Notes under the pieces: generated by a model | The model's input: the letters and a program-made list of their open reading frames with translations, nothing else | Databases searched by the model: none | Told to the model about the DNA's origin: nothing | Position numbers and translations under genes: made by a program | Shown here: piece by piece, positions 14,465-37,210 of the stretch | How positions within the stretch are numbered: position 1 is the first letter of the stretch | Layout: the number at the start of each line of letters is the position of its first letter | DNA from: a virus | DNA length: 45,695 nt | Strand: one strand, 5' to 3' | Virus record (IMG/VR): IMGVR_UViG_3300045988_144013

Positions 14465-14498
14465 AGCACTTAACTTCGGTTAGGTGCTTTTTTATTTG
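14465..14498 (+). terminator. Terminator with UUCG tetraloop, family member 1
   Basis: AGCACTTAAC-TTCG-GTTAGGTGCT followed by TTTTTTATTTG, 19 nt before the terS ATG. Confidence 0.7.
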
Positions 14499-14516
14499 CA
14501 AAGGTGGTGATAACAG

Positions 14517-14900
14517 ATGGCTGCATTAAAAGATCCAAGACAGGAGAAATTTTGTCAGCTTATGGCTGCAGGTGGTAAAACACAGGAGCAGGCAGCCATA
14601 GAAGCAGGATATTCAGAGAGAAGCGCCAGGCAACAGGCAGCAAGACTGTTGACAAATGATAACATTTGCGACAGGATGAACGAACTTCGTGGAATCCAAG
14701 AAGAAGAGGTTGCAGATGAACTTCGCAGACTAAAAGACTTCTGGTTAGATGTTATGGAAGACGAAGAAGAGCGTATGAATGATAGGCTTAAAGCATCTGA
14801 GCTATATGGTAAATCGATAGCAGCATTTGTAGAGAAGCGCGAGGTTAGCGGTAAAGATGGTGAACCAATTACTTTTCGTTGGGCTGGTGATGATGGTTGA
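14517..14900 (+). CDS. terS: Terminase small subunit
   Basis: KDPRQEKFCQLMAAGGKTQEQAAIEAGYSERSARQQAARLL is a Terminase_2-type N-terminus. Confidence 0.9.
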   Translation: MAALKDPRQEKFCQLMAAGGKTQEQAAIEAGYSERSARQQAARLLTNDNICDRMNELRGIQEEEVADELRRLKDFWLDVMEDEEERMNDRLKASELYGKSIAAFVEKREVSGKDGEPITFRWAGDDG

Positions 14901-16228
14901 AAGTAATAACTATACCATACAAGCCAAGGCCTCTTTGGAAAGACATAATTCATCCTGCACTTGATAAATATCGCTTCGCCGTTATAGTAGCTCACAGACG
15001 TTATGGTAAGACTGTAGGAATGATAAATGAGCTGACTAAGAGTGCTATCAAAAATACGCTTATAAGCCCTCAGTTCGCATATGTAGCGCCGTTTAGGAAT
15101 CAGGCTAAGATGATTGCATGGAACTATTTGAAGTATTACACAAGCGCGATTCCTGGCAGAAAGGTAAATGAAAGCGATCTGTTTATAGAACTGCCATCAA
15201 AGCATAAAAATGCTGTTGGGGCAAGGATATATATTATAGGTGCGGATAAGCCTGATGCGTTGCGCGGTACTTACTGGGACGGTGTTGTGCTTGACGAATA
15301 TGCTCAAATAAAGCCTGAACTATGGGGCGAAGTAATACGGCCGGCGTTAGCTGACCGCAAGGGCTTCGCTTATTTTATCGGAACACCTAAAGGGCAGAAT
15401 CAGTTCTATGAGATATACCAAAGAGCGCAACGCAGCGAAGACTGGTTTACCTGCCTTTATAGAGCTGATGAAAGCGGTGTGTTGGATGAAGCAGAGCTTA
15501 AGTCGATGATGGAAGATATGACGGATATAGAAATACGTCAGGAACTTTATTGTGATTTTACTGCATCGGCTAGTAATGTCGTCATCCCTATTGATTTAGT
15601 TACAGAGGCAGCACACAGATTGCTTCAAGAAAAAGACGTGCAGGGAGCTCCAGTTATTCTTGGCGTTGATATAGCCAGATATGGTGATGACAGATCTACT
15701 ATTTTTAAGAGACAGGGACTATGGGTAGATGAACCTTTAGTTTACAAAGGTCTGGACACTATGGATATGGCGGCAAGAGTTATTGATGCGATAATAAGAT
15801 ATAAGGCCGATATGACTTTTATTGACGCCGGAGTCATGGGTGCTGGAGTTATAGATCGCATTAGGCAGTTGGGGTACAACAATATCAGTGAAGTCTACTT
15901 TCAGGGCAATGCACTGCATGAACAGCGTTTTGAAAATATACGTGCTGAGATGTATTTTAAGATGCTTGAATGGCTCAAGTCTGGCGGCGCTATACCTGAT
16001 ATGCCGGAATTAAAAAGCGAACTTAGTATCGTAGAGTACAAGTTTAGTAAACGTGGCAAAATCATCTTACAGCCTAAAGAAGAAATTAAGGAAAAGATTG
16101 GTAAAAGCCCCGATCTTGCAGATGGTCTTGCTCTGACTTTTGCAAGGCCTGTTTATCCAAGGTTAAAACCGGGTGATCCTGGGTATGGCCGGAAGATGAT
16201 GTGTAATACAGAATATTCGATATTTTAA
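14897..16228 (+). CDS. terL: Terminase large subunit
   Basis: 443 aa. Walker A-like HRRYGKT, Walker B VVLDEYA, C-terminal nuclease domain. ATGA overlap with terS. Confidence 0.9.
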   Translation: MKVITIPYKPRPLWKDIIHPALDKYRFAVIVAHRRYGKTVGMINELTKSAIKNTLISPQFAYVAPFRNQAKMIAWNYLKYYTSAIPGRKVNESDLFIELPSKHKNAVGARIYIIGADKPDALRGTYWDGVVLDEYAQIKPELWGEVIRPALADRKGFAYFIGTPKGQNQFYEIYQRAQRSEDWFTCLYRADESGVLDEAELKSMMEDMTDIEIRQELYCDFTASASNVVIPIDLVTEAAHRLLQEKDVQGAPVILGVDIARYGDDRSTIFKRQGLWVDEPLVYKGLDTMDMAARVIDAIIRYKADMTFIDAGVMGAGVIDRIRQLGYNNISEVYFQGNALHEQRFENIRAEMYFKMLEWLKSGGAIPDMPELKSELSIVEYKFSKRGKIILQPKEEIKEKIGKSPDLADGLALTFARPVYPRLKPGDPGYGRKMMCNTEYSIF

Positions 16229-16240
16229 GGAGTGATAGCA

Positions 16241-16456
16241 ATGGGAATTTTCAAGAAAGTATTTGGTGGTGGGAGTATTAGAATGCCTGAGGTTGTTGAA
16301 ACGCCTCCGGCTCCTACGACAGTGACCAGTACGGAGACTGGAACAGAAACAGATCCGGCAAAGAAAAATAAAAGGCGTGGTTTTGCTTCTACGCAAGTGT
16401 CGTCTGATCGCAATACTATTGCAGGCAACGCTACTGGCAGAAAGACTTTAGGTTAG
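16241..16456 (+). CDS. Hypothetical small protein
   Basis: Start reset to MGIFKK, 8 nt after AAGGAG. Confidence 0.45.
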   Translation: MGIFKKVFGGGSIRMPEVVETPPAPTTVTSTETGTETDPAKKNKRRGFASTQVSSDRNTIAGNATGRKTLG

Positions 16457-16466
16457 GGGTATTGAA

Positions 16467-18269
16467 ATGGCTAAAGCTAAATTAAAGCAAAAAGAAATTG
16501 AAACTATAGCAGCACGAGCGCCGGCAGAAACACACCCAGCAGATGGGCCGTCTTTAAAAAGCCACTGGCCAGAGAAAAGAAAACTGATTAGAAAGATGAG
16601 AGATCTTTATGAAAAAAGACTTGATTATGAAATTCGTTGGAAAGCGATTAGAGATTATCAGTTGCCGTTTATAGGCGAATTCGATAATACGGCAGATAAA
16701 ACTAATCCTGCCCGCAGACGTGATCTGGAAATTGCTCAGGGCGTTGCATGGTTGGCCGCACAAGTATTTGCTGCAGGAGTAATGAGCGGTTTAACCCCTC
16801 CTAGTCGTCAGTGGTTCAAATTAGGGTTTAGCAATAGTGCGATGAGTGGTGATATTGAAGCCACGAGAGTGTTGGATATCAGGCAAGAAATAGTATCTGC
16901 GGTGCTTTCAAAGAGTAATTTTTACAATAGCATACATTCGGTGTATCTTGAGTTGCCATTTGGACAATGCCCAATGGCAATTTTTTATGACCCGAGTACG
17001 GGTATTAGATGTGTACCTATGACTATTGGGACTTATGCTCTTGGTGTAGACGGCTTTGGCAAGGTGCAGACATTCGCTCGAAAATATGAAATGTCATTAG
17101 CACAGATAGTTGATTGTTTTGGACAGGAAAGCCTGCCTCAACATTTGCAGCAGCAAGCGACTAATGGTACTGGACTTGATAAAAAGCATACTGTCAATTG
17201 GCTTGTTGAACCAAATGACAAACGCCTGCCAGGATATATGGATAGGTTGAATATGCCTTATAGGTCTGTGTATTGGCTTGATAAATCGCAGGATAATGAA
17301 TTCTTATACGTTGGGGGGTTTGAAGAATGGGCCATACCAGTTGCAAGGTATCTTGTAAACGGGCTTGAACCGTACGCTAAAGGGCCAGGTTGGTTCGCTG
17401 AAGGCGATAGTAAAGCACTTCAGACTATGAAAAAAGATTTGCTTACAGCTATTGAGATTGGGGTTAAACCTCCAATGAAAGGACCGGCTTCGCTGCTGAA
17501 CAACGGTGGTATTAATCTTATTCCTGGCGGGATGACAGCTGTGGATGACCAGTCGCAGCAGTTCGTTCAACCGCTGTTCCAGGTCAATTTAGATATTGAC
17601 CATGCTTCTCAGGAGATCATTCGCACGGAGGACGCAATCAAAAGGCACTATAGTGCAGATTTATTTTTGATGCTTGATAGTGTTGATAACGGGCAAATGA
17701 CGGCACGCGAGGTCATGGAACGCACACAGGAAAAGTTGCAGCAGCTAGGGCCTGTAGTCGAACGGTTACAGGATGAGTTCCTAACGCCGATTATTGTTAG
17801 GATATACAACATCCTCGAAAGGTCTGGAGCATTCCCGCCGATACCACCTGAGATCCAGGAACGTATAAGCGATGAGGATATTAAAATTGAGTATATTTCC
17901 CCGTTGGCGCAAGCGCAGAAAATGAGTGGACTTGTTAATATCGAACAGGCTCTTGCTACTACGCTGCAGATGGCGCAGGCTTGGCCGGAAGTGCTCAAGA
18001 AGGTTGATCCTATAGGAACACTGTCCAAATACTTTGAAATGCTTGGTGCTCCCGCTGCTATGCAACGTAGCGACGATGATGTTAAGAAGCTTATTGAGCA
18101 AGAACAGCAGGCATTACAAGAGCAGCAACAGACGCAGGAAGCAATGGCTCTTATGCAGGCAGCAGCACCGGCAGCACAGGCGGCAAAGAACATGACTGAG
18201 GCTGCAAATGATGGTAACCCAGCTATGGCAGCTTGGTTAGGCATGGGAGGCGGCGCAGGTGAGGTATAA
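16467..18269 (+). CDS. Portal protein (podovirus head-to-tail connector type)
   Basis: 600 aa, directly after terL. Q/A-rich C-terminus. Confidence 0.85.
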   Translation: MAKAKLKQKEIETIAARAPAETHPADGPSLKSHWPEKRKLIRKMRDLYEKRLDYEIRWKAIRDYQLPFIGEFDNTADKTNPARRRDLEIAQGVAWLAAQVFAAGVMSGLTPPSRQWFKLGFSNSAMSGDIEATRVLDIRQEIVSAVLSKSNFYNSIHSVYLELPFGQCPMAIFYDPSTGIRCVPMTIGTYALGVDGFGKVQTFARKYEMSLAQIVDCFGQESLPQHLQQQATNGTGLDKKHTVNWLVEPNDKRLPGYMDRLNMPYRSVYWLDKSQDNEFLYVGGFEEWAIPVARYLVNGLEPYAKGPGWFAEGDSKALQTMKKDLLTAIEIGVKPPMKGPASLLNNGGINLIPGGMTAVDDQSQQFVQPLFQVNLDIDHASQEIIRTEDAIKRHYSADLFLMLDSVDNGQMTAREVMERTQEKLQQLGPVVERLQDEFLTPIIVRIYNILERSGAFPPIPPEIQERISDEDIKIEYISPLAQAQKMSGLVNIEQALATTLQMAQAWPEVLKKVDPIGTLSKYFEMLGAPAAMQRSDDDVKKLIEQEQQALQEQQQTQEAMALMQAAAPAAQAAKNMTEAANDGNPAMAAWLGMGGGAGEV

Positions 18270-18621
18270 GAGTATTACAGATGCGGATAGCCGGCAAGCT
18301 AAATTGCAGGCGTTCTTTCAAAGAGAGCTTCGCAAACGCGATCAGGATGCACTATCAACTATCTTAAATAGCGAAAGCGGACGCTGGTTTTTAATGCGAT
18401 TGCTTGATAAAACAAAAATCAATATAGATAGTTTTACCGGCAATTCACAGACCTTTTATAACGAGGGTATGAGAAAAGTCGGTTTATTAATTCTCGATGA
18501 TATTAAGAGTCTTGGTATTTCTGGAGTAGAGCTCAAACAAAAGGCTGAGCTTGAATATATAAAAACTCAAATCAAAGCGCAGGAAATTGCTGCCGAACAA
18601 TTGGAAGGAGACGATGACTAA
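18259..18621 (+). CDS. Bbp19-like head-module protein (tentative)
   Basis: GRWFLMRLLD...SFTGNSQTFYNEGMRKVGLLIL matches the remembered Bbp19-like pattern. GTG start. Confidence 0.4.
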   Translation: MRYKSITDADSRQAKLQAFFQRELRKRDQDALSTILNSESGRWFLMRLLDKTKINIDSFTGNSQTFYNEGMRKVGLLILDDIKSLGISGVELKQKAELEYIKTQIKAQEIAAEQLEGDDD

Positions 18622-19259
18622 TGGAAGATGTAACTAACACGAGTGCCAACGATAACACGCAGGGCACTGAAGTAGTTGAACAGCAGAAAGAGGTTCAACA
18701 GGAGACACAGTCTGCTGATACCCTTCTTGGTGGTAAAGCAGAAACTCAACCACAGGAAGAAGCTGAACCAATTGCTTATGACTTTAAAGAAACTATTTCC
18801 GCTATGGATGACTTTGAGTTCAGCCAGGAAGAGAGCGATAAGTTCGTAGAGGTCATTAAGGATATGGGGCTTAACAATGAGCAGGCTAACGCTATTGTTA
18901 AGTATGGCGGCGAATGGGGTAAAGGCATCGCAGAAGCTGCTATGAATGCTGTTATAGAGCAGCGAAATACAGAAGTTCAAAATTGGGGTGAGACTGCAAA
19001 GAAAGAACTTGGGACAGAGTTTGACAGTATCATTAGTCTTTGCGGTCTTGCGGTGGAACATGTAGAGAAAGCGGTTCCTGGTATCAGGCAGGCGTTAAAC
19101 GAAACAGGCGCAGGTAACAGAATTGAAGTTATCCGCGCTTTTTCTATGCTCGGAAAGTTTTTGGAGAGTGACCCGGGTAAAGGCGCTGGCGCTCCTGCCG
19201 CACAGGGAAGCAGCCTTGAAAAATTCTATGACAAAACAGATTTTAGTAAATTAAAATAA
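18621..19259 (+). CDS. Scaffolding protein
   Basis: Acidic 212-aa protein between the portal and capsid genes. Confidence 0.65.
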   Translation: MEDVTNTSANDNTQGTEVVEQQKEVQQETQSADTLLGGKAETQPQEEAEPIAYDFKETISAMDDFEFSQEESDKFVEVIKDMGLNNEQANAIVKYGGEWGKGIAEAAMNAVIEQRNTEVQNWGETAKKELGTEFDSIISLCGLAVEHVEKAVPGIRQALNETGAGNRIEVIRAFSMLGKFLESDPGKGAGAPAAQGSSLEKFYDKTDFSKLK

Positions 19260-19276
19260 GAGAGGATGAATGAATA

Positions 19277-20281
19277 ATGGCAGTTTTAAATCAATTGGCA
19301 TATACCTTAGCTGATTGGAGGGGAAGACTTGACCCTTCCGGAAATGTAGATGATATTATTGAGGTATTGTCTCAATCTAATCCAATTTTAGAAGAAATGA
19401 CTTTTATGGAGGGCAATCTTCCTACTGGGATCGTGACTACTCAACGTACAAAAGTTCCTGAACCTTCTATCCGTCGTATCAATACTGGTGTTCCTTATAA
19501 AAAGAGCGGAGTAAAACAGATTAATGATACGACTACTTTATACGAAAATCGTAATAAGATGGATGTAGAGCTTTTGCGTTTGCAGAATGATCCTGCAGCT
19601 TTCCGTTATAGCGAGGATCTAGCATTTGTAGCCGGCTTTGGTGATCGTATTGCTAAAGATGTTATTTATGGCGGACTTAGCGAGGTTCCGGATGAATTTA
19701 ACGGGTTCGATATCAGACATCGTTATTTTGGCAATGGTGATGATCCGACGGCTGAAGGCTATACTACTCTTAATGCTGGCGGCGGTACCAAAAATACATC
19801 TATTTATTTTGTAAATTGGGGAGAACGTACATGCTCAGGCGTGTTCCCTAAAAATGGTAGTGCTGGTTTGAAGAAAGAAGATCTTGGACAACAAACTACA
19901 ATAGCGGATGACGGAACTGAATTTGAAGCTATGATTACGAAATGGACTTGGAATGTAGGCCTGACTATTCGTGATTATAGAGCTGTAGGAGCTATTCGCA
20001 ATATTGATGCAGCACAGTTTGCATCTGCAACTTCTGCTCAAAAGCAGAAGATTATTGAGAATGTTATTCGCGTTCATGACCGGTTGAGAAATCCTGACAG
20101 TGTTATGATGTACTGTTCTCGCAGCATGTATACTCTGTTCAAACTGTGCTTGATCGATAAAAATAACGTTCATGTTGAAATGGAAACGCTGGCCAATGGC
20201 ATTAAAGTATTAAATGTAGATGGTATGCGTGTACGTAAACTTGACTGCATTCGTGAAGACGAAGCTAAAATTGAAGCGTGA
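19277..20281 (+). CDS. Major capsid protein
   Basis: 334 aa, positioned after the scaffold. Strong RBS GAGAGGATGAATGAATAATG. Confidence 0.8.
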   Translation: MAVLNQLAYTLADWRGRLDPSGNVDDIIEVLSQSNPILEEMTFMEGNLPTGIVTTQRTKVPEPSIRRINTGVPYKKSGVKQINDTTTLYENRNKMDVELLRLQNDPAAFRYSEDLAFVAGFGDRIAKDVIYGGLSEVPDEFNGFDIRHRYFGNGDDPTAEGYTTLNAGGGTKNTSIYFVNWGERTCSGVFPKNGSAGLKKEDLGQQTTIADDGTEFEAMITKWTWNVGLTIRDYRAVGAIRNIDAAQFASATSAQKQKIIENVIRVHDRLRNPDSVMMYCSRSMYTLFKLCLIDKNNVHVEMETLANGIKVLNVDGMRVRKLDCIREDEAKIEA

Positions 20282-20294
20282 GGAGTGAAAAATA

Positions 20295-20815: not shown

Positions 20816-20852
20816 CACCTATGTAGTCATGTGACGGCTATGTACAAGCACT

Positions 20853-20881
20853 TAGGGACGTCTTTAAGGCGTCCCTATTTT
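20853..20881 (+). terminator. Rho-independent terminator after the head module
   Basis: TAGGGACG-N9-CGTCCCTA followed by TTTT. Confidence 0.7.
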
Positions 20882-20913
20882 AATAAAGAGGAAAATAACA
20901 TGGAGGTGTTTCC

Positions 20914-21507: not shown

Positions 21508-21511
21508 ACTT

Positions 21512-25394: not shown

Positions 25395-25396
25395 AC

Positions 25397-25425
25397 TTGC
25401 ATTGGTACGAAATGTATTATATAAT
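25397..25425 (+). promoter_or_regulatory. Sigma70-type promoter TTGCAT-N17-TATAAT
   Basis: Perfect -10 and 4/6 match at -35, with a 17-nt spacer, 3 bp after the preceding stop. Confidence 0.55.
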
Positions 25426-25544
25426 AAACGAAAAGAGATAGTCAGTGGTCGCACGCTGGCTCTCCCTCATAATCATAAAACGTGAAAGGAAGCCGCGCGC
25501 CACTGGTGTTAGCGGCTTATTTCATGGCTATTTACAGCCTAAAA

Positions 25545-25611
25545 TGACAATAGCTATTAATGTACTAAAAGCAATCATCAAAGACAACGCTTCATAAGTT
25601 GACAATAGCTA
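25545..25611 (+). repeat. Direct repeat TGACAATAGCTAT x2, each containing the palindrome ATAGCTAT
   Basis: Copies at 25545-25557 and 25599-25611. Confidence 0.8.
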
Positions 25612-25656
25612 TCACCCCCCGTAAGGGAAGCCAACACACTGACTATCTCGGACAAC

Positions 25657-25685
25657 ATTATAACATACCTTTAAGCGCTTAACAA
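25657..25685 (-). promoter_or_regulatory. Minus-strand promoter TTGTTA-N17-TATAAT with TG extension
   Basis: Read on the reverse complement. It would start transcription at the right arm of the 13-bp inverted repeat, convergent with the plus-strand promoter. Confidence 0.45.
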
Positions 25686-25704
25686 TTTGTTAAAGCGCTT
25701 TTTC
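25673..25704 (+). terminator. Terminator, family member 2
   Basis: AAGCGCTTAACAA / TTGTTAAAGCGCTT (one bulge) followed by TTTT. The 5' arm AGCGCTTAAC is shared with members 1 and 3. 27 nt before the next ATG. Confidence 0.65.
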
Positions 25705-25730: not shown

Positions 25731-27812
25731 ATGAAATTCAGTCAATATCCTTCACAGGTCAATCCTAATACAATACAGGGACAAGTACAGCGCCCAGGCG
25801 ATTTAAACAGTTACGGTGGCAATGGCGCTGGATACGAGGCTATTGGTAGAGGATTGGGTGCGGTGAATGAAGTAACAATGAAAATGATAGAAGATGATGA
25901 TAAGCGTAGTTTATTGGAAGCTGTTGATAAATATAATAAAGCAAGATATAACATCCTTTATAACAATGAAACAGGCCTTATGAATACACGCCTTGAAGGT
26001 GCTGTCGGTGCGCAGGATAGGTATTTGGAAGAAGAACGAAAAATCAGAAGTGAAATTTTAGGACAGACTAAGTTTGTTACAAGCCAGTATAGATCTGCAT
26101 TTGAAGAGATGGCTAATAGGTCAGCAAATCAAGGCTGGGCACTTGTTGGGCAGCATCAACATCAACAAGGAGAAAAAGTTAAAGATGTCAGTTATGAAAA
26201 CAACATAAATGATCAGATCGAATTCGGGCAGAAAAATTATGATAATAATGATATTGTTGTGGGCAATGAGGCATCAATCAGACTTTTAACTTCTGCCAGA
26301 TATCAAGGATATGGAGAAGCATTTATAAAAAATAAAACAAGTCAGGCGCTGGGCAAATATGGAAGCACCTTGATCACTGCGGCGATAGTTAATCAGAATT
26401 ACGCCAAAGCGGACGAACTGTTAGGATATTTTTACGATGATTTAACTCCTGAGCAGCGTAATGGCTTTAACAATACAATATTTCAAAAAGAAAAGGTTGA
26501 AACCATAGATAGTTTTGCGCGGCAGATTTTCCAGCAGTTTGGTAATGATGAAGAAGGTGCCAGGGCTTTTATTGATAATATGGGTAATACCTCTATTGAC
26601 GAACAGCAACCAGGGAATGGTATTACGTGGGTCAAGAAAGAGGGCGCTTCGTTAGAGGGAACACAGTATGTAACTCGTAGTGGCCTTGCTGATTTGGGGC
26701 AATATTACCAAAAGATGACTGGTGAACCTTTATTGGTTACCAGTGGTACTGACAGCGGAAATTTGCACGCTGAAGGTGAGCGTAGCCATGGTGGCGGCTG
26801 GAAAGTAGATGTTGCAAGTGATTGGTTGGAGAATCCCGAAAATCGAGCTAAATTTATACAGTATGCTGAAAGTAAAGGGATTCTCGTACTTGATGAATAT
26901 AGTGAGCCGTCTACAAATTCTACGGCAGGACATTTAGATTTAGATTTTACTGACTACAAAGGCAGTGGTGGCGGTAGAAGGTTGATAGATTATGGCGATA
27001 AAGAAACTGTTTTTAAAATGTATAAAAACATGGTAAAGGATCAAGAGAACCGTCAGAAAGAACAGCAAAATGCTTTTTATGCTCAAACAATTGAAAATAT
27101 TTATAACCTTTATAAGCAGGGTGTTCCATATCAATCAGTAGTAGACCAAATCAAAGCAGTTGCCGGTGCAAATGTTGAAGCTGGCAAGAAAATGTTATCA
27201 GCTGCTGATTATTTTTATGATTCTGATGGTAAAATAAAAGGTCTAAGTTCTACACAGTTAGATGTTGCACAAGATATGCTTGGCGGTGGAATGTTCACTT
27301 CTCTTGAAGAGTATACAGGATTTTTAGCAAATCATGGCGCCAAACCTGAGCAGTTGTATAAAGCTAAAGAGACATGGGATCAATTTGAAAACTCCGAAGG
27401 ACGGTTTAGTTATAACTGGAGCGATCTGCAGCAAGATGTTGTTGGCGATATTAAAGATAAAAACGGTGCGAAAGCTCAGGCATGGCGAGAAGCACAAGCC
27501 TACGGAAAAGTATTTATCAGCAAATTTATTTTAGAAAACAAGCGCGAACCTATGTATCATGAAGTTGTTGAAGCGTGTAGAAATTCTCTTAAAAAAAATC
27601 ATTTTGGAACAATGACAGTAAGGGGCTCATATCTGAATAGCGAAGAAGAAGTAAATATTAGTGATGCGCGTTTAGCGCTGGTTGGGATACGTAATGTAGA
27701 AAGGGCTAGAAATACTGATGGCAGTCTGACAGAAGATTTGTTTATTGTAAGATATACAGATGGACGCGTAGAGCAAATGAATGCCGCGAAATTATATATT
27801 ATAGCTGGATGA
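25731..27812 (+). CDS. Internal virion protein with an M15-type (VanY/DD-peptidase-like) peptidoglycan hydrolase domain
   Basis: ERSHGGGWKVDV and AGHLDLDF resemble the SxHxxGxAxD / H zinc ligands of peptidase M15. 693 aa in the core-protein block. Confidence 0.55.
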   Translation: MKFSQYPSQVNPNTIQGQVQRPGDLNSYGGNGAGYEAIGRGLGAVNEVTMKMIEDDDKRSLLEAVDKYNKARYNILYNNETGLMNTRLEGAVGAQDRYLEEERKIRSEILGQTKFVTSQYRSAFEEMANRSANQGWALVGQHQHQQGEKVKDVSYENNINDQIEFGQKNYDNNDIVVGNEASIRLLTSARYQGYGEAFIKNKTSQALGKYGSTLITAAIVNQNYAKADELLGYFYDDLTPEQRNGFNNTIFQKEKVETIDSFARQIFQQFGNDEEGARAFIDNMGNTSIDEQQPGNGITWVKKEGASLEGTQYVTRSGLADLGQYYQKMTGEPLLVTSGTDSGNLHAEGERSHGGGWKVDVASDWLENPENRAKFIQYAESKGILVLDEYSEPSTNSTAGHLDLDFTDYKGSGGGRRLIDYGDKETVFKMYKNMVKDQENRQKEQQNAFYAQTIENIYNLYKQGVPYQSVVDQIKAVAGANVEAGKKMLSAADYFYDSDGKIKGLSSTQLDVAQDMLGGGMFTSLEEYTGFLANHGAKPEQLYKAKETWDQFENSEGRFSYNWSDLQQDVVGDIKDKNGAKAQAWREAQAYGKVFISKFILENKREPMYHEVVEACRNSLKKNHFGTMTVRGSYLNSEEEVNISDARLALVGIRNVERARNTDGSLTEDLFIVRYTDGRVEQMNAAKLYIIAG

Positions 27813-30800: not shown

Positions 30801-33800
30801 GTTATGAAGTTTGATATGATTGCTGAAGCTCAGGGCTTTAGCGGTGATGAGCTGGCAAAAAGGCTTATTGCCGAGCCTACGCTTGAACAGGCGATAGAGA
30901 GAGCCCTTGATAATGCGGTACAAGTAAAATTTCCTGATATTTATAAAGAACGCCAATTAGCGGAAGATGCGGCACGAGAAGCCATTTATAATGATGATAG
31001 CGGTCTGTTGATTGGTGTAGAACAACAGCTAATTGAAGATATGGCAGCGAATATCAATAATAAACAGCGTAGTACAGAACAGGCTCTTGCGCTTGCCCGA
31101 GCACGTAAGCAACAGGCTAAATTAGCAGCTAAAGCAGAAATCAGTAAAATGAGTATGAGTAATGCTTTGAAAACGGGCAGGTTTGTTATGGCAGAACGTC
31201 GTGCTGCAGCACAGGCGGCGAAAGCTATAAAAGCTAAGAGTTTTGAAGAAGCGGCAGATTATAAAAGACAGCAGGCTTTTAACCATGCTTTGGTATTGGA
31301 AAGTTTAAAAATGAAGCAGGAAAAAAGCAGAGCTGAAAAATTTTTAAAACGCCAGTTTAAGGCAAAAAAAGAAACGTGGGAAGATGAAAAGCACTTTACA
31401 CAAGCAGCTGCCATTATGGAAAGGATGGGATTAAAACGCAAGGATTATGATCCTGCACTCAGAAAACAATCTTTAATAGAGTATGCAGAAGAAATGCAGG
31501 AACAATATGATAATGTTGCTATTGCCGACTGGCTTATGGATGAAGGGACGTCTTTAGACAATCCTGCCGCAATGACTTTTGAACAACATCAGGATGTTAT
31601 CAATGCTTTGAAAAATATTAAAGCAATCGTTAAACAGGAAAAATATGTAACCTGGTACGGTAAGGAATTGAATTATAAGGAATTCAAGGACGAGGCTATT
31701 AGGAATCTTTTGAAACTAAAAACAAAATGGCAATCTGGTATCAATTCCAAAGAAAAGGCTAAGCCAAGTCAGAGATTTTTTAGAAACCTTACAAATACTG
31801 ATAATTTCTTTGAGCGGATGGATGGCTGGAAATATGGATTTTTCAGTAAACATTTTGGCGAAAGCGGACAAATTGCAGCTAATAAAAAAGCTGCATATAC
31901 AATGGAGTTTGAAGAACGTATTGCTGACGCTACTAAAAAATGGCTGCCGGATAAAAAGGCTGCGGAAGCAGCAGATAAAGAAATTTATTACGAACCATTT
32001 AAGGCCTCATTAACAAAACATAATATTATAAAGATGCTATTGTATTTAGGCTCGGAAAGCAGTTCGTATAAATTGTGTTCAGTTGGGCCTAACAGTACTT
32101 ATGCAACATTTTTCCGAGGCTCTGAGTTGTGGGTTGAAGGTGATCTTGAACAGACGAGAAGCAATTTGCTTGAGGCTTTAGGCAACGTTTTAACAGAAGC
32201 TGATATTCGTTACGCGGAGGAAATTTCCGCTGCTTGTAGCGCTCACTGGAATGAACTTTCGGATATGGTAAAAAGAACGACTGGTTTCTCGCCTGAGAGA
32301 GTTGATGCTATGCCAGCAGAACTTACTTTGCGTAATGGAGCTAAAGTTGTTTTCCGTGGTGGGTACATTCCGTTAGTAAGATATACTGACGGTGGCAGTC
32401 ATCCTGCTACGTCGGATGCCGTTCCGGCAACAAGCGATAAGCGTGCTGTAAACAGTATTAGAACACTGCATACAAATACCGGTGGAACCAAAGCACGTGA
32501 TAGAAGTGTATATCCGTTGGATTTAAGAAAAGGCGCTGAGTACTCTGCAGTTATGGATAATATACATGATCTATGCTATAGAGAACTAGCTACAAGCTAT
32601 CGTAAAATGTTGAATGATCCTGAAATGTATTCTTTGCTGAAAGAAAAATTAGGTATTGCGAATTTTGAAGCGTTTACAGAATACTTAAAGAAAACGGCAC
32701 AGCCTTATGACGGTGGTTACGCTTCAATCAGTGAAAGAGATGCAGGGACTTGTTTGAGCTGGATACGCCAAAAGGCAGTCAATGTAGCAATAATGCTTAA
32801 CTTCAAAACTGCTGTCCAAAACTTGGGAAATCCGTTGTTATATGGTAATGTTGTTGAAGGCTTTGGTTATAAGGACGTAATGGCCGCTTATGGAAATTTG
32901 TTTTTGAATATGCAAAAAGGGCAAGGATGGAAAGCTTCCAAAGAACTTGTTTATTCTAAATCATCTTATATGAAAGAGCGTTCTGTATTGCCGGATATTT
33001 CATTGCGGGATATGAAAGACGAGAGTAGAAAACTGAATCCAGTTGAGCAGGTTACAGTTGAATTTGGTACAAAAGCATTGGTGTTTACCGATAATTTATC
33101 AGCTATTCCTGTTTGGATACAGGCGTATCAAAAGAAAATCAATGTCGGAGTCAGCGAACAGGAAGCCGTGCTATTTGCGGATACTGTTATTAGGCGTACA
33201 CTTGGCAGCAGCCGTATTACAGATGTTGCACCTATTCAGCGTGGCAGCGCACTCATGAAATTATTTACAACATTCCAGGGCTTTTTCAATACGCAGTTCA
33301 ATCAATGGCAAAGAGAAGCTGGAATTTTTGGCCGTGAGTGGAGTGCCGGAAGGAAAGTTGAAGCATCTAAGCGAATAGTTGCTTTTGCAGCGGCTAAGTA
33401 TTTTATGTTTTGCCTGCTGAATTTGGCTTTTGCATTAGAACCGCCTTTTGAAGAAGACGATGATGAATGGACAAAATATGGTAAAGAGCTTTTGCAGTAT
33501 CCTATGAGTTTGCTAGGACCTGTTGGGCAGGTTGCCAATACTCTTGTTAGCAATATGGTCGGAATGCGAACCTATGGCTATAGGATGACTGCAGTACAAG
33601 GTTCTATCGAACAAGCGGAGCGTACAGTAAAGAAAATAAGCAGTGTACAAAAAGGCAATGCTGAACCAGAAGAACTGATTGAGCCTTTAGCTAATCTCGG
33701 TGGTCTTATCGCTGGTGTGCCGGCGCAGTTCAATAAATTGTTTTTTAACGCTTATGATATTGTTGTAAATGATATGGAGCCTCAGTGGGGCGATATCTAC

Positions 33801-33827
33801 AGACGCAGACCAAAAAAAGAACGGTAA
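27840..33827 (+). CDS. Giant polyvalent internal virion / DNA-ejection protein (1995 aa)
   Basis: N-terminal glycine-zipper TM region. Central KHIFDGHSDGMTPELL module (phage MuF/PBECR-like). HETGH zinc-peptidase motif at 30063-30077. Long coiled coils. C-terminal TM segments. Confidence 0.7.
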   Translation: MDAARKQELDNIFNNALKASTNYSIQNAYYGTDSGVDPLSTLGFIDKQTGYDVESKITTALLNGAKSGIKGLLANAGAMVEENIAIHKRQDPNYIPYGGYAPKIAEQFNSLANSEILQRTDVRSSSKLGQFGLDFLEGAGQFVPQIAVTGLTGGIGGGIFMGMSIAGNQYSDLRAQGVDVETAAKASRYNAIIQAPLEQLALGKVLASLPAGSPLKKRLVRLLESAITEGGTEFIQEFPEQLTNIYAQNPNADAKQIATEWDKNWQENIKNAGYSGLIGALLGVGASGAKIAIDSIGENVDAEIHKEKLTQLENNIENVKKSGVNPEYAAGVINTNRPSDFISIDGQKLQQYMQEQGAEKITQALNITEDEVNAAATDGLDVEVPIGDFTAAACKYGDFYKTMQDHISFGDGDYSVNDRKLKKDLRKAYQISENAREELDIEVDKIVENSTNAKMNQEERGALREFLVSQAMIVNPENPAQYFRDHPVEIKRVVSTPKGRYMQTKSANEKLIEDERNFAGIVDEYTAGKINDTKTYNVMTTPLALGLAGGKILPVTIDGSKIKHIFDGHSDGMTPELLKQVPRAMADPMMVLDSYAGRKVVVLDLKDAQGSTIILPLELDVERNRYQVNAVSSAYGKGGENGTDYDWFIEHNLKKGRVSYINKEKTAKWLQSPGSDSASRGNDLDSLLNNSIPDENALRKRREEMQGYYQAEGKTKGAITWDEEGKAIISLFEGSDVTTVFHETGHYFVENLANDVNSGKATEQRQKDWETLLDYAGITNEQWLNMSIDERRPAHEKWAEGFETYVMEGKAPSLALRHVFAKMAKWMKRVYESIRRNENAAPLTDEVRQVFDRMLASEEEINTMSRVDGYFNKLPSVITDNLSESSKIRLENYIAKARDEAVDILTRESLRNFTKERRVAIEDFKDKLRPEIRTEVEKQPLYAAGRMLVDDLQKKQTAKGVADYYLGLIARTLDIESKPLSEVEELDVMKFDMIAEAQGFSGDELAKRLIAEPTLEQAIERALDNAVQVKFPDIYKERQLAEDAAREAIYNDDSGLLIGVEQQLIEDMAANINNKQRSTEQALALARARKQQAKLAAKAEISKMSMSNALKTGRFVMAERRAAAQAAKAIKAKSFEEAADYKRQQAFNHALVLESLKMKQEKSRAEKFLKRQFKAKKETWEDEKHFTQAAAIMERMGLKRKDYDPALRKQSLIEYAEEMQEQYDNVAIADWLMDEGTSLDNPAAMTFEQHQDVINALKNIKAIVKQEKYVTWYGKELNYKEFKDEAIRNLLKLKTKWQSGINSKEKAKPSQRFFRNLTNTDNFFERMDGWKYGFFSKHFGESGQIAANKKAAYTMEFEERIADATKKWLPDKKAAEAADKEIYYEPFKASLTKHNIIKMLLYLGSESSSYKLCSVGPNSTYATFFRGSELWVEGDLEQTRSNLLEALGNVLTEADIRYAEEISAACSAHWNELSDMVKRTTGFSPERVDAMPAELTLRNGAKVVFRGGYIPLVRYTDGGSHPATSDAVPATSDKRAVNSIRTLHTNTGGTKARDRSVYPLDLRKGAEYSAVMDNIHDLCYRELATSYRKMLNDPEMYSLLKEKLGIANFEAFTEYLKKTAQPYDGGYASISERDAGTCLSWIRQKAVNVAIMLNFKTAVQNLGNPLLYGNVVEGFGYKDVMAAYGNLFLNMQKGQGWKASKELVYSKSSYMKERSVLPDISLRDMKDESRKLNPVEQVTVEFGTKALVFTDNLSAIPVWIQAYQKKINVGVSEQEAVLFADTVIRRTLGSSRITDVAPIQRGSALMKLFTTFQGFFNTQFNQWQREAGIFGREWSAGRKVEASKRIVAFAAAKYFMFCLLNLAFALEPPFEEDDDEWTKYGKELLQYPMSLLGPVGQVANTLVSNMVGMRTYGYRMTAVQGSIEQAERTVKKISSVQKGNAEPEELIEPLANLGGLIAGVPAQFNKLFFNAYDIVVNDMEPQWGDIYRRRPKKER

Positions 33828-33836
33828 GAATAAAAA

Positions 33837-33897
33837 AACTGGCAACGATTTCTCAAGGGACGAAATCCCAATGTTGAAAAAGTTGCCAGTTTTTTAT
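33837..33897. terminator. Bidirectional terminator between convergent genes
   Basis: AACTGGCAAC / GTTGCCAGTT, with an A-run before and T6 after. Inner hairpin GATTTC/GAAATC. Confidence 0.65.
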
Positions 33898-33920
33898 TTA
33901 TCATTACAATTTATTTGACA

Positions 33921-34301
33921 TTAGAAGAAAAATTTATGGGAATGACATTGTTCATATATTTTTCTTATTTCCCAATTAGAAATATTATAGCCATGTAGTC
34001 GTTTATTGTGGAAAACCAACATAAATAAAAACCAAAAAAATGGCAAAATGAATCCTAGATAGGCATTATAAGAATAAATACCAGTTATGTATGGTATAAA
34101 ATATATTGTCGCGATAATTAGTCCGAGAGCAACAAATACATTTTCAATTAATTTTATAATTAGCAAATATAAAGTAAAAGCAATTAAAGTAATAATTCCG
34201 CATTGAAGTTTAAGTATTATTGAACCTTCACGACCCATTCCGATTGCAAATATAGAAAGCCATACACATAATCTTCCCATATCGTCATTAAATTTATCCA
34301 T
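33921..34301 (-). CDS. Four-TM membrane protein; candidate superinfection-exclusion protein (SieA position)
   Basis: 126 aa, very hydrophobic, low-GC codons. Own TG-extended -10 (TGATATAAT) and RBS AGGAG. Confidence 0.6.
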   Translation of the reverse strand: MDKFNDDMGRLCVWLSIFAIGMGREGSIILKLQCGIITLIAFTLYLLIIKLIENVFVALGLIIATIYFIPYITGIYSYNAYLGFILPFFWFLFMLVFHNKRLHGYNISNWEIRKIYEQCHSHKFFF

Positions 34302-34370
34302 ACCAATACTCCTAAAATAAGCATATTATTGACTGTTTTTCATAATTATATCACATTTATAAATGAAAAT

Positions 34371-34392
34371 AAAACAGCCCGTAGGCTGTTTT
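34371..34392 (-). terminator. Terminator after the XRE gene
   Basis: AAAACAGCC-CGTA-GGCTGTTTT, symmetric hairpin. Confidence 0.6.
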
Positions 34393-34396
34393 AAAG

Positions 34397-35101
34397 TTAA
34401 GATTTATTAAGGTATTCTTCTATGAATTTATTCAAGTCATTATCTTGATTGTCTACTATTATATATAAATCATCAATAATAGAATGTTTTTTTGAATCTG
34501 TAATGAATTTAAACTGACCTGAAATAAAAGCAAAAAGTCCGATTACGACTTCACTGTCTCTGAAAAATTTGAAAAGCAAATAACCATTCTGTGAAATAGG
34601 ATCAATTGCGGTGAAATATGATTCCTGTTCTAAAAAATCATAATCATTAAATTGAGGGAAAAAGCTCAAAATAAAATCATTTATGATTGGATGTGTTGAA
34701 TTAAAATGTTTGTTTTTATCCAAAGAAACCGGATTTCCATTGTCATCCAAAACCATTATTTCTTCTTTTAAGTCTTCTGGTATCTTTTTTATGAATGGAA
34801 CACTTTCAACTTTAGGGAAGATATCCCAGTGAACCAAAGAATTCTGTGTATCGTATATTAGTTTTTCTACTAATTTATAGACTTTAGAGTCAGACTTTGA
34901 TTGAGTATCTAAAAGCAGATAATCTAAAGTTACATTAAATAATTCTACAAGTTTTTTTAATAATTCTGGATCGCTAGGAATACTTTTTCCCGTTTCGTAG
35001 TAACTAACAATTCTCGAGGATACTCCTAACTTTGTGGCTAAATCTTTTTGGGTCATACCCTTGGCTTCACGGAGTTTCTTTAGATTTTCACTGAAAGACA
35101 T
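34397..35101 (-). CDS. XRE-family HTH regulator with an unknown 165-aa C-terminal domain (Mnt-position repressor)
   Basis: LREAKGMTQKDLATKLGVSSRIVSYYETGK. Start reset to MSFSEN. Divergent from the RHH/antirepressor operon. Low GC. Confidence 0.75.
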   Translation of the reverse strand: MSFSENLKKLREAKGMTQKDLATKLGVSSRIVSYYETGKSIPSDPELLKKLVELFNVTLDYLLLDTQSKSDSKVYKLVEKLIYDTQNSLVHWDIFPKVESVPFIKKIPEDLKEEIMVLDDNGNPVSLDKNKHFNSTHPIINDFILSFFPQFNDYDFLEQESYFTAIDPISQNGYLLFKFFRDSEVVIGLFAFISGQFKFITDSKKHSIIDDLYIIVDNQDNDLNKFIEEYLNKS

Positions 35102-35180
35102 ATTAATCACCACCTAAAGCAATTATAACAATAAGAACCATAAGACACAATATTTTTCTCGAAAAACATCAAGACGTATA

Positions 35181-35209
35181 TTGACATAACTAACGTATTA
35201 CGTTAAAAT
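35181..35209 (+). promoter_or_regulatory. Promoter TTGACA-N17-TAAAAT with an embedded 15-bp perfect palindrome TAACGTATTACGTTA
   Basis: Consensus -35. The palindrome 35191-35205 spans the spacer and -10. 33 nt before the RHH gene. Confidence 0.65.
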
Positions 35210-35241
35210 TAAAAGTAACAAACGAGAAAGGAGTATTAAAG

Positions 35242-35412
35242 ATGAGGCCAACAATTGATTTTAAAGGTGATCTTGGAGCAGTACTTAGATACCACTGTAC
35301 AAAAGTGGGCATTAGTATTGCTGGCTATGTCAAGGGGTTAGTGTATGATGATTTGTTAAAGAAGTATCCTAACTTACTTGATGAAACAAAAAAAGAAACT
35401 ACCATCAAATAG
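35242..35412 (+). CDS. Arc/Mnt-like ribbon-helix-helix protein (56 aa, tentative)
   Basis: N-terminal beta-strand-like TIDFKGDL followed by two helices. RBS AAAGGAG. Not in the ORF track. Confidence 0.45.
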   Translation: MRPTIDFKGDLGAVLRYHCTKVGISIAGYVKGLVYDDLLKKYPNLLDETKKETTIK

Positions 35413-35471
35413 TTCTTGGCGGAACAATGGTAGTTTCATAATGAAAGAATGTTCAAGATAAACATCATTCT
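35388..35471 (-). ncRNA. Candidate antisense small RNA, about 84 nt (sar-like position)
   Basis: Minus-strand promoter TTGAAA-N17-TAAACT (complement of 35478-35506). 11-bp perfect hairpin 35395-35405 / 35427-35437, followed on the minus strand by T7. Confidence 0.4.
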
Positions 35472-35531
35472 TTTAACAGTTTATCATATATTGAACATTC
35501 TTTCAAATTAAAATTGAAAGGATGTATTTTT

Positions 35532-36263
35532 ATGAAAAACGAACTGAAGATTTTTGAAAACGAAGCTTTTGGTAAAGTTAGAATAATTGAAAAAAATAAT
35601 GAGCCGTGGTTTGTAGGCAAAGATGTTGCTGATATTTTGGGGTATAAAAATGGCAGCCGTGATATTAACGTCCATGTTGATGAAGAAGATAGGCTAAAGT
35701 ACCAAATCCGTACCGCAGGTCAAGCGAGAGAGCAGACACTTATTAACGAAAGCGGATTATACTCATTGATTCTATATAGTAAGCTACCTGCCGCAAAGAA
35801 ATTCAAACGCTGGGTAACAAGCGAAATACTTCCTGCGATTCGCAAAACTGGGTCGTATTCTGTAAATCAGGATATAAAAGCTAGAGAAGTAGAAGCTCGC
35901 TTAAATAACAGCCGGGCAAGAGTTGCATCGACATTCCTTAAAGTTGCTCAAATGACTGATCTGCTAGAATATAAGCATATATGTCAGCAGAAAGCAGCAG
36001 AGGTTTTAAGTGGTTTACCGTTACTACCAATGGAAGAAGCTAAAGAAATTACTTATTCAGCAACAGATATAGGGAAAATGCTTGGAGTATCGGCAAATAA
36101 AATAGGTAAGATAGCCAATCAGCATAATCTTAAAACGCCGCAGTATGGAAAGTTATTTTACAGCAAATCGGAACATAGTTGCAAAGAAGTAGAAACATTC
36201 CGTTACTACGAATGCGCCATTCTAAAATTCAGAGAAATTCTGAAAGGTGGTGTGGTGGCATGA
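35532..36263 (+). CDS. BRO-N domain antirepressor
   Basis: LKIFENEAFGKVRII...EPWFVGKDVADILGY...INESGLYSLILYSKLPAAKKFKRWVTSEILPAIRKTGSY. Start reset to MKNELK. Confidence 0.85.
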   Translation: MKNELKIFENEAFGKVRIIEKNNEPWFVGKDVADILGYKNGSRDINVHVDEEDRLKYQIRTAGQAREQTLINESGLYSLILYSKLPAAKKFKRWVTSEILPAIRKTGSYSVNQDIKAREVEARLNNSRARVASTFLKVAQMTDLLEYKHICQQKAAEVLSGLPLLPMEEAKEITYSATDIGKMLGVSANKIGKIANQHNLKTPQYGKLFYSKSEHSCKEVETFRYYECAILKFREILKGGVVA

Positions 36264-36472
36264 ACTTGACAGATGCTATTAAATTAGCTGGATATCAGGA
36301 AGTGCCATTCTACAATCAAGAAGTTATAAAAGGGTTAAATGATATAGTGGAGTGTGAAAAACGGAAAAGCAGCTATAACGATTTACCTTTTGCGGCGTGT
36401 TTGAGTGGTTACTTGTATGGAGTTACGCAAGGCGTTCGTAAAGAACGGCAAAGAAGAAAAAATGCCCGGTAA
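36260..36472 (+). CDS. Hypothetical protein (70 aa)
   Basis: ATGA overlap with the antirepressor stop. Start reset to MNLTDAIK. Confidence 0.5.
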   Translation: MNLTDAIKLAGYQEVPFYNQEVIKGLNDIVECEKRKSSYNDLPFAACLSGYLYGVTQGVRKERQRRKNAR

Positions 36473-36499
36473 AGGGATTGAAATAGTTTTTGAATAATG

Positions 36500-36566
36500 A
36501 AAAAAAGAAACACCCGCTTTCCGTGGAAAGATGCGCGAGTGTTTCTTGTGACCAGCCGAAGCTGAT
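36500..36566 (-). ncRNA. Candidate antisense small RNA, about 67 nt
   Basis: Minus-strand promoter TTGATA-N17-TATACT (complement of 36573-36601). Hairpin AGAAACAC / GTGTTTCT (36506-36546), followed on the minus strand by T6-7. Confidence 0.35.
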
Positions 36567-36613
36567 AACAATAGTATAGCAGTTTTCGGCTGGTATATCA
36601 AGGAGGATATACC

Positions 36614-36823
36614 ATGAACGGAAACAGGTCGTCGTGTCCTGACGAAGAAAAAAGGGCATTGGAGAAATTTGTCGAAGTTGTAAGAAGCACATCTCAAGAA
36701 GAATTTGCAAGAAAATATATAAATGAAGATAGTGATAAAATGACAGAGACAAAAAGCGAGATCTCCACCGCTGATAGAAAAGAAGTAAAAGAACAAATCA
36801 AAGGCGGTGTAAATAATGAATAA
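36614..36823 (+). CDS. Hypothetical protein
   Basis: 69-aa ORF. The RBS AAGGAG sits in the loop of an 8-bp hairpin. Confidence 0.45.
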   Translation: MNGNRSSCPDEEKRALEKFVEVVRSTSQEEFARKYINEDSDKMTETKSEISTADRKEVKEQIKGGVNNE

Positions 36824-37016
36824 AGTGCGGAAATCATTTAGGGAGCTGTTGAACAAATTGTCTCCGGCGCAGCTTGAAGAAGTAGCAGCCATAGCATATG
36901 AGATAAAGAAAGAACGTGAATCGTCGTCGAAGGTAGTTCGGTTTATGGATAAGTCCAGCCAGCGTTGTTATGATCAGGGGTATAAGCTTGGTCTGATGTT
37001 AGGAAATAAATTTTAA
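36816..37016 (+). CDS. Hypothetical protein
   Basis: 66-aa ORF overlapping the upstream stop. Confidence 0.45.
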   Translation: MNKVRKSFRELLNKLSPAQLEEVAAIAYEIKKERESSSKVVRFMDKSSQRCYDQGYKLGLMLGNKF

Positions 37017-37020
37017 AAAG

Positions 37021-37059
37021 TTTCCGACAAAATGCCATTTAACAAGAGTTAAAATAGTA
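37021..37059 (+). promoter_or_regulatory. Late-promoter motif, copy B
   Basis: TTTCCGACA-N16-GAGTTAAAATAGTA, both boxes identical to copy A. Confidence 0.6.
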
Positions 37060-37111
37060 ATGTAAGGTTATTGGATATGAGAGCAGAGGCGGTGTTAAAA
37101 AATTAAAAATG

Positions 37112-37150
37112 TATCCGACAAAACCACTATAAAAATGAGTTAAAATAGTA
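37112..37150 (+). promoter_or_regulatory. Late-promoter motif, copy C
   Basis: TATCCGACA-N16-GAGTTAAAATAGTA, 91 bp downstream of copy B. Confidence 0.6.
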
Positions 37151-37178
37151 TCATAAAGTTAGTTAGAACTTAATAGAA

Positions 37179-37210
37179 AGCGCTTACTTCGGTAGGCGCT
37201 TTTTTATTTG
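37179..37210 (+). terminator. Terminator with UUCG tetraloop, family member 3
   Basis: AGCGCTTAC-TTCG-GTAGGCGCT followed by TTTTTATTTG, which runs straight into the tail-fibre RBS GGAAGGAGGG. Confidence 0.7.

Follow-up and report, generated by a model that had tools for sequence, protein, structure and literature searches.

Why would a temperate phage set what look like intrinsic terminators between its probable late promoters and the genes that these promoters head? The question is raised by a viral DNA of 45,695 nucleotides (nt; IMG/VR record IMGVR_UViG_3300045988_144013), referred to below in its whole length as the window, in which three hairpins followed by U-runs, here called A (14465-14498), B (25673-25704) and C (37179-37210), stand shortly before late genes. 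An initial annotation had described them as one near-identical family, placed so that antitermination would govern the late gene blocks. Our analysis argues for a different grouping, in which A and C would be intrinsic terminators built into two paralogous late-expression cassettes heading both late operons, and in which B would end a separate RNA. The strongest of the new facts are descriptive, i.e. a late cassette present in duplicate, structural selection seen in the replacement of stems, a late leader that bears tRNAs, and a structured RNA ending in B.

Hairpins A and C and their duplicated cassette

The elements on which the argument turns are these:

13425-13868, + strand: gene for a protein of 147 amino acids (aa), directly 5' of P1; candidate sigma-like late regulator, positioned as RinA/Ltr genes are
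13861-13923, + strand: P1, a copy of a 63-nt repeat; core TCCGACA-N16-GAGTTAAAATA at 13876-13909
13940-13963, + strand: remnant of a deleted tRNA-Lys(UUU) in the P1 leader
14039-14062, + strand: leader hairpin T0 (GCCGTTGGGGTRATACAGCGGC), conserved, with a weak U-tract; -13.7 kcal/mol, z -2.4
14069-14136, + strand: 5' part of the conserved block before A (pre-A block), homologous to the -10 block and leader before C (alignment A4)
14149-14451, + strand: 100-aa open reading frame (ORF) that interrupts the pre-A cassette in the window; many relatives are without it
14454-14498, + strand: 3' part of the pre-A block (ACTTAATA), hairpin A (14465-14488) and its U-run
14517-14900, + strand: terS (PF03592 and phrog_51), which opens late operon 1
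20853-20877, + strand: strong terminator-like hairpin in late operon 1, 3' of the capsid genes; -17.5 kcal/mol, z -5.7
37008-37070, + strand: P2, copy of the 63-nt repeat; core at 37023-37056
37099-37161, + strand: P3, copy of the 63-nt repeat; core at 37114-37147
37176-37210, + strand: hairpin C (core 37179-37200, extended by A-U pairs) and its U-run
37226-38374, + strand: tail-fibre gene with a TTG start (phrog_1640 and other tail-fibre families), which opens late operon 2

All three hairpins are present exactly as the initial annotation had quoted them, and their RNAs are predicted to fold stably, with free energies of -13.3 kcal/mol for A (z -5.9 against shuffled sequences), -12.0 kcal/mol for B (z -4.3) and -17.5 kcal/mol for C (z -4.6). 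The distances that it gave are borne out, A ending 19 nt 5' of the terS ATG (14517), B ending 27 nt 5' of the ATG at 25731 and C adjoining the Shine-Dalgarno (SD) sequence GGAAGGAGG of the tail-fibre gene at 37210-37218, as are the C(UUCG)G tetraloops that it saw in two of the hairpins, A and C. These two also have an identical tail (TTTTTTATTTG), and the U-tract directly 3' of their stems reads UUUUUUAUUUG, whereas that of B, merely UUUUUC, is weaker. At 30 of 34 aligned positions A and C are identical; the two mismatches in the stem compensate each other (A-U to G-C), and the gaps amount to a paired A/T indel. The pair has a local alignment score of 24; the 33 terminator-like hairpins of the window, compared in all 528 pairings, average 6.95 (sd 2.3). 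A G.U pair lies at the same place in both stems and C folds poorly on the - strand (-8.5 against -16.4 kcal/mol on the + strand), which argues for constraint on the + strand RNA; structural conservation is strand-specific. By stem, loop and tail, A and C are predicted to be canonical intrinsic (Rho-independent) terminators. An automated terminator scan of the window reports A, and not B or C. Further terminator-like hairpins of the late region, unlisted by the initial annotation, lie at 14039-14062, 20853-20877 and 33840-33888. At 20847-20877 the motif AGCACTTA adjoins the internal terminator 20853-20877, probably by coincidence, the frequency of the motif being at chance.

The proposal of a near-identical family of three thus holds for A and C and fails for B. 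Hairpin B, with its bulged stem, 3-nt loop and short U-run, scores 15 against C and has just AGCGCTTAAC (~10 nt) in common with A and C; it differs from them in stem, loop, tail and context, and belongs to a separate RNA. Nor does the AGCRCTTA arm, which had been offered as the signature of the family, set the three apart, since the 8-mer has 5 matches in the window where 4.5 are expected.

The likeness of A and C extends well beyond the hairpins. Upstream of each lies the 63-nt repeat P, present in three copies (repeat family D3, and alignment), in which two conserved blocks, AAAAAnGTnTCCGACA and GAGTTAAAATAGTA, are separated by 16 nt. Its CCGACA lies 20 nt from TAAAAT, unlike the spacing of sigma-70 promoters, and P probably serves as a late promoter. 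The P core is present in more than 100 related IMG/VR contigs, typically at two sites per phage genome that head two late operons, usually singly after the homolog of the 147-aa gene, and singly or in tandem before the tail-fibre operon. A genome-wide scan for the pattern yielded mostly chance matches, the sole real match being in Phascolarctobacterium faecium DSM 14760. Together with P, the hairpins form a cassette of ~100 nt in two paralogous copies, each comprising the -10 block of the late promoter, a short leader (~25 nt), the hairpin, the U-run and the SD sequence. In relatives without the 100-aa ORF (for which Pfam, NCBIfam and PHROG gave no family matches), ~80 nt 5' of hairpin A align with the -10 block and leader 5' of C, the leaders reading ...CGGTAATATAYATCAAARTTTAGCATAWAACTTAATAYAAAG-hairpin and ...GAGTTAAAATAGTATCATAAAGTTAGTTAGAACTTAATAGAA-hairpin. 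Duplication of the whole cassette thus accounts for the likeness of A and C.

Both copies are conserved in surroundings that are not. The pre-A block is kept across 38 distinct upstream contexts, and in every distinct P2/P3 context examined C starts 29 nt after the P3 core (~24-29 nt after the -10 block) and is invariant except for one loop variant. The order of P, hairpin and gene is kept in more than 100 relatives and in the prophage of P. faecium DSM 14760, while at least six different first genes follow each cassette, joined immediately after the SD sequence. In P. faecium DSM 14760 alignment is confined to the 210-nt P2-P3-C unit, at 99% identity, and to 57 nt around A; the flanks cannot be aligned. 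Phages with only the tail fibre in common have it within a continuous operon, and the cassette is absent. To judge from these alignments, the cassettes are constant control modules set before variable cargo, i.e. conserved islands in mosaic genomes. Distant relatives were of less use as an independent test. In one of them (L055) a RinA-like gene is followed by a stretch rich in AT and by a hairpin, with a further 70 nt before terS; its promoter was not located, and no repeated element was found in the loci examined.

What is conserved is the hairpin as a structure. In some relatives an unrelated stem, GGCAATGTGAATAATTTGCACATTGCT, stands in an otherwise identical pre-A cassette, and in one the stem is the variant AAGCACTTAC-TTAT-GTAGGTGCTT, with a UUAU loop; in both cases the U-run and SD sequence are unchanged. 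Relatives whose terL is 57-66% identical have unrelated strong hairpins at the same site before terS. The replacement of stems beside an unchanged U-run implies that selection acts on the combination of hairpin and U-run, not on the sequence of the stem, and strongly supports selection for a hairpin of the terminator type. The suggestion that the stems are recognised sequence elements is contradicted by the replacement stems and by exact copies of C in unrelated contexts: the C 25-mer occurs in four unrelated contigs without the P cassette, in two of them directly after the stop codon of the upstream gene.

These four are the viral contigs L361-L364, for which a scan at the Rfam gathering thresholds gave no match. 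In L361 the 25-mer (around 8006-8030, - strand) follows a TGTGGTATAAT promoter and a ~110-nt leader with a closing helix of GGGAAAGU with ACUUUCCC, an arrangement that, from its sequence, looks like a riboswitch-type attenuator.

The leader between P1 and A is mosaic among the relatives, some of which carry there an intact tRNA-Lys or two tRNA-Ser (L021 3070-3144, L034 4076-4150, L125 6891-6964, L168 9884-10067); ARAGORN calls no tRNA in the window, where the remnant at 13940-13963 is internally deleted. Such a leader raises the question of whether the hairpins act mainly at the RNA level, as elements of the 5'-untranslated region that serve mRNA stabilisation, processing after release of the leader tRNAs or the context of translation initiation, with termination being incidental and the U-run acting as an A/U-rich enhancer before the SD sequence. 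The leader tRNAs of the relatives imply that the P1 transcript must be processed, and the joining of variable genes exactly after one conserved unit of hairpin, U-run and SD sequence would suit such a role, as would a small covarying hairpin and other conserved RNA-like features 5' of A. However, a G+C-rich stem followed by six U residues terminates bacterial RNA polymerase regardless of its other roles, and the replacement stems keep the U-run directly adjacent. Furthermore, ~24 nt precede the hairpin in the P3 transcript, whereas known 5' stabilisers need the extreme 5' end. We consider a mainly RNA-level role improbable.

Hairpin B and a structured RNA

Hairpin B lies among the following features:

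24270 and 24759: gp13-like and gp14-like genes, respectively (PF11090, PF24072)
25397-25425, + strand: sigma-70-type promoter TTGCAT-N17-TATAAT, kept in all four sequence types of the structured RNA
25432-25704, + strand: structured RNA of ~270 nt, ending in hairpin B (25673-25700) and UUUUUC
25731-27812, + strand: 693-aa gene in the position of T7 gp15, the next gene 3' of hairpin B; preceded by the gp13-like and gp14-like genes

The initial annotation had placed each hairpin downstream of a promoter, and a promoter-like element does precede all three, although it is the P repeat for A and C and one of the sigma-70 type for B. The gp14-like and 693-aa genes are separated by 337 nt that differ in kind from the promoter-terminator units of A and C. 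Within this gap an invariant helix, GAGAUAG with CUAUCUC (25435-25441 pairing with 25643-25649), closes a structured core, 3' of which hairpin B lies; the helices inside the closing helix occur in four sequence types that are related by compensatory changes. RNAalifold gives 54 pairs, 16 of them with compensatory double changes, and 94% of the cells are paired, compared with 33-43% when, as a control, the partners are slid by 1-3 columns. A protein gene in this region (ORF 25445-25597) is ruled out, the frame not being conserved across the sequence types. On this covariation, B is the predicted terminator of a separate, undescribed structured RNA of ~270 nt with its own sigma-70-type promoter. 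Rfam has nothing at gathering threshold in the window, and in scans in E-value mode of the B RNA, the P1 leader and the P3-C transcript the best matches were far below thresholds. In distant relatives ~125 nt occupy the position of B and the structured RNA is absent.

Five related sequences (L004, L031, L035, L037 and L227; homologous to window 25430-25500) have a partial tandem duplication, in which the 5' domain of one type is followed by a complete unit of another; this suggests that the duplication arose by recombination at the conserved GAAAAGAGATAG motif.

No promoter lies after B for the 693-aa gene or the 1995-aa gene that follows it, and their transcription must therefore pass B. The U-run of B is short, which suggests incomplete termination, and we picture B as a leaky terminator of the ~270-nt RNA.

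A covarying RNA in the middle of a late operon and a structured P1 leader are what one might look for if antitermination were RNA-based and processive, i.e. if the RNA of the late leader or of the B region modified polymerase in cis, as put, EAR and Tn916 canT do, such that A, the hairpin at 20853, B and C were all ignored. A conserved leader with a 5-bp hairpin also precedes C. We nevertheless think this most improbable. The ~24 nt between the P3 start and C are too few for a put-like element, which would moreover have to act on a terminator within itself; the P1 leader varies among relatives as a mosaic; the B RNA has a terminator of its own at its end and is missing from distant relatives; and the lack of Rfam matches for the three RNAs scanned also speaks against it.

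Read-through and control of the late operons

Transcription from outside the late operons is directed at both A and C. Early transcription that passes the 147-aa gene encounters only the weak-tailed hairpin at 14039-14062, and no canonical terminator on the + strand, until it reaches A. On the other side, an accessory (moron) operon reads toward C from the following promoter, with no strong + strand terminator between 36263 and 37176:

35181-35209, + strand: strong sigma-70-like promoter TTGACA-17-TAAAAT of the accessory operon 35242-37016

Because neither path holds an earlier strong or canonical terminator, A and C would shield the packaging and lysis genes from transcription arriving from upstream. 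The U-run is separated from the gene by just 19 nt at A and by the SD sequence at C, leaving no room for another promoter, so that expression of the late genes needs read-through, as the initial annotation had argued. From P1 to the 1995-aa gene four terminator-like hairpins lie in the path.

Insulation of this kind could be wholly passive. A and C, and likewise the hairpin at 20853 and B, may be leaky insulators or attenuators with fixed read-through, the only switch then being at the promoter, via a sigma-like factor, and no antitermination factor being involved; A and C would lower the leak from the early and accessory operons and, with the internal terminators, set the ratios of the late proteins. 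We regard this as a strong rival reading, if one short of an even chance. Of the strong + strand terminators, C is the first to follow the sigma-70-type operon 35181-37016, and no canonical terminator comes between the early operon and A. The spacing of P suggests a factor-dependent rather than a constitutive promoter, the tandem duplication of P2 and P3 could offset losses at C, the U-run of B is weak, the C hairpin is a generic terminator part used elsewhere too, and no antiterminator homolog was found among the early and main late proteins searched. On the other hand, an insulator would be equally effective 5' of P, without taxing late transcription, as in the studied Ltr/RinA phages; many relatives have separate terminators 5' of P2 yet retain C; and four canonical terminators one after another, if each were efficient, would leave very little distal expression.

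The reading that we tentatively favour, with a probability of about 0.4, is that read-through at A and C depends on a factor that brings about antitermination, an arrangement that by analogy fits lambda-Q-style control and falls short of proof. A terminator 3' of a promoter, rather than 5' of the terS promoter as in Ltr/RinA phages, makes late expression costly unless the block is relieved; taken together, such a position, kept among relatives, hairpins of canonical strength and additional terminators within operon 1 resemble a Q-type system. In outline, A and C would act as gates that block transcription from the early operon and from the accessory operon 35242-37016, as well as basal transcription from the late promoters, the default product of P3 being an RNA of 50-58 nt, in agreement with the ~55-nt RNA that had been predicted to end at C. 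In lytic growth, RNA polymerase would read through A and C, and through 20853-20877 and B toward the internal-protein genes, a phage factor having rendered polymerase that starts at P resistant to terminators, according to the logic of lambda Q. The sole candidate for this factor that can be named is the 147-aa protein encoded just 5' of P1, which is predicted to resemble sigma region 4.

Late control of the lambda type comprises the Q gene, pR', 6S RNA and tR', and is found also in phages 21 and 82; in Stx phages the short transcript is the small RNA StxS (PMC7547250). The present system is like it in having a candidate regulator gene immediately 5' of the late promoter element, a canonical intrinsic terminator tens of nt 3' of the promoter and 5' of late or lysis genes with no later promoter, a short RNA as its predicted default product, and more terminators within the late operon. 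It is unlike it in that Pfam, PHROG and NCBIfam reveal no Q-family protein (Q-lambda, Q21, Q82) among the early genes or in the 147-aa protein, for which the fold search gives sigma region 4, and in that the promoter does not match the sigma-70 consensus and probably needs a phage sigma-like factor. Further differences are the two copies of the cassette, each at the head of an operon, the Negativicute host and the T7-like virion module. In the lambda type a constitutive sigma-70 promoter is combined with a sigma-dependent, promoter-proximal pause and a Q-binding site. Speculatively, GTTA repeats in the leader of the present system resemble the -10 block.

The late activators RinA, ArpU and Ltr of phages of Gram-positive bacteria (PMC3152322, PMC3753634) offer a second comparison. 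As with these, a small regulator gene lies directly 5' of terS and of the target promoter, and a terminator lies in the interval between regulator and terS; their LtrA family is sigma-70 region-4-like, and the 147-aa protein has a weak structural resemblance to sigma region 4. In the characterised Ltr/RinA phages, however, the insulating terminator is 5' of the terS promoter (PMC3753634), whereas here T0 and A lie 3' of P1, and C lies 3' of P2 and P3. In addition, the promoter is present again at the head of another late operon, and the 147-aa protein matches no hidden Markov model of RinA, ArpU, LtrA (Sigma70_r4), LtrB (DUF1492) or LtrC.

In the Pseudomonas AlpA, Bartonella BaGTA, Tn916 and pLS20 systems, harmful genes of mobile elements are kept behind an insulating terminator, which lets through only transcription from a dedicated promoter or leader. 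The arrangement described here is alike in layout; no kinship in sequence or fold was seen, and the early protein that resembles HTH_17 (2320-2676) scores below threshold. Antitermination systems of this kind are described, in part, in PMC11658703 and bioRxiv 10.1101/2024.11.20.624540.

P1 begins right at the 3' end of the gene for the 147-aa protein (gene end 13868), and P1 and the 3' end of the regulator ORF also overlap in the P0008 relative (L305). The protein has no Pfam match at E<=0.01, no NCBIfam match at E<=1 and no PHROG match, and its homologs are few, one being named as from Phascolarctobacterium sp. In its AlphaFold2 model (predicted local distance difference test score 75), the C-terminal four-helix domain best matches region 4 of extracytoplasmic function (ECF) sigma factors, with weak E-values (0.3-1) and a probability of up to 0.98. 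From this model, the protein may be a sigma-like specificity factor that drives P and, from its position before terS, a functional analogue of the RinA/ArpU/Ltr regulators. A bolder version would have this one protein both direct polymerase to the late promoter and confer resistance to the promoter-proximal and further terminators of the 20-kb operon, the lysogen yielding only ~55-nt RNAs, in temperate T7-like Phascolarctobacterium phages; we think this rather unlikely.

At the end of the lysis block, 42848-43090 encodes an 80-aa protein that consists of sigma-70 region 4 only (PF08281, E 2.8e-8) and is similar to the LtrA class; a strong terminator (43076-43106) follows immediately. On this domain match the protein is a second candidate regulator.

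Several points weigh against factor-dependent antitermination. The search for antiterminators and late regulators, which covered ~50 proteins with PHROG, Pfam and NCBIfam, gave no match to Q, N, RinA or ArpU, and among the early and main late proteins there was no homolog of Q, N, AlpA, NusG/LoaP or another annotated antiterminator; the only other regulator-like candidates were the 80-aa protein (42848-43090) and the sub-threshold HTH_17 early protein (2320-2676). The 147-aa protein itself, by its weak fold match, looks like an initiation factor and not like a known antiterminator. The spacing in P is not that of sigma-70, so a constitutively active promoter, as in the Q paradigm, is not apparent; control may be exerted entirely at initiation. 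Since the exact C hairpin is an ordinary intergenic terminator in unrelated contigs, nothing ties C to a specific factor, and inspection by eye of the 24-nt leader before C revealed no alternative (antiterminator) RNA fold. Finally, if attenuation lowered expression ~100-fold from the capsid to the internal-protein genes, this would agree with virion stoichiometry with no factor, and a wholly passive scheme of leaky terminators, a strong, partly duplicated promoter and tuned stoichiometry accounts for the same layout.

If read-through is factor-dependent, the phage would have a Q-like late switch, without a Q homolog, in a common human-gut bacterium; promoter-coupled antitermination would extend beyond lambdoid phages, and sigma-like late regulators would prove to be combinable with terminators. 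Should the reading as a sigma-like switch be true, promoter-coupled processive antitermination would have a fourth, non-homologous form, one without precedent in this bacterial group. The system is compact: the cassette measures ~210 nt, there is one candidate protein of 147 aa, and the lysogen P. faecium DSM 14760 is in culture. If read-through is instead passive, A and C would be ordinary but well-documented insulating or attenuating terminators in a mosaic phage family. In either case the reading of hairpin B is corrected and an undescribed structured RNA has been uncovered.

Genome layout, host and other features

The remaining landmarks of the window are:

126-1187, - strand: integrase gene, at one end of the 45.7-kb window
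14897 (start): terL, in the T7-like morphogenesis module
16467 (start): portal gene, same module
19277 (start): major capsid protein gene, same module
21374 (start): tail-tube B-like gene, same module
41392-41940: amidase gene, in late operon 2

After the integrase gene come a repressor-like gene and a DUF739 (cro-like) gene, then a + strand early and replication region and the morphogenesis module. Late operon 1 runs from terS through the gene, 3' of the 693-aa gene, for the 1995-aa internal protein, which has a MuF_C domain, and late operon 2 comprises the tail-fibre and lysis genes; an accessory region (33921-37016), partly of - strand genes, divides the two. The TTG start codon of the tail-fibre gene (37226) was deduced by comparison with relatives. 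Related contigs are numerous in IMG/VR, while a phage collection held no near-identical published phage. The presence of a related prophage in P. faecium DSM 14760 points to a human-gut Negativicute as the host.

Three sets of repeats were also observed. Perfect inverted repeats of ~30 nt (GAAAATACCACTGGCTTCACCATCCAGTGG; 39706-39737 and ~40133-40162) bracket ~400 bp of the tail-fibre block, comprising the 3' end of a 199-aa gene and the 5' end of a 242-aa DUF4376 gene; the segment could be an invertible host-range segment, although no invertase was seen nearby. The two ends of the window, 1-55 and 45641-45695, are identical 55-nt direct repeats that adjoin the integrase gene, and represent either prophage att cores or the overlap of a circular assembly (k = 55). 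At 7795-8090, within a 174-aa gene (7761-8285), ~14-20 tandem 15-nt units encode pentapeptide repeats (ADLSG/ADLRS).

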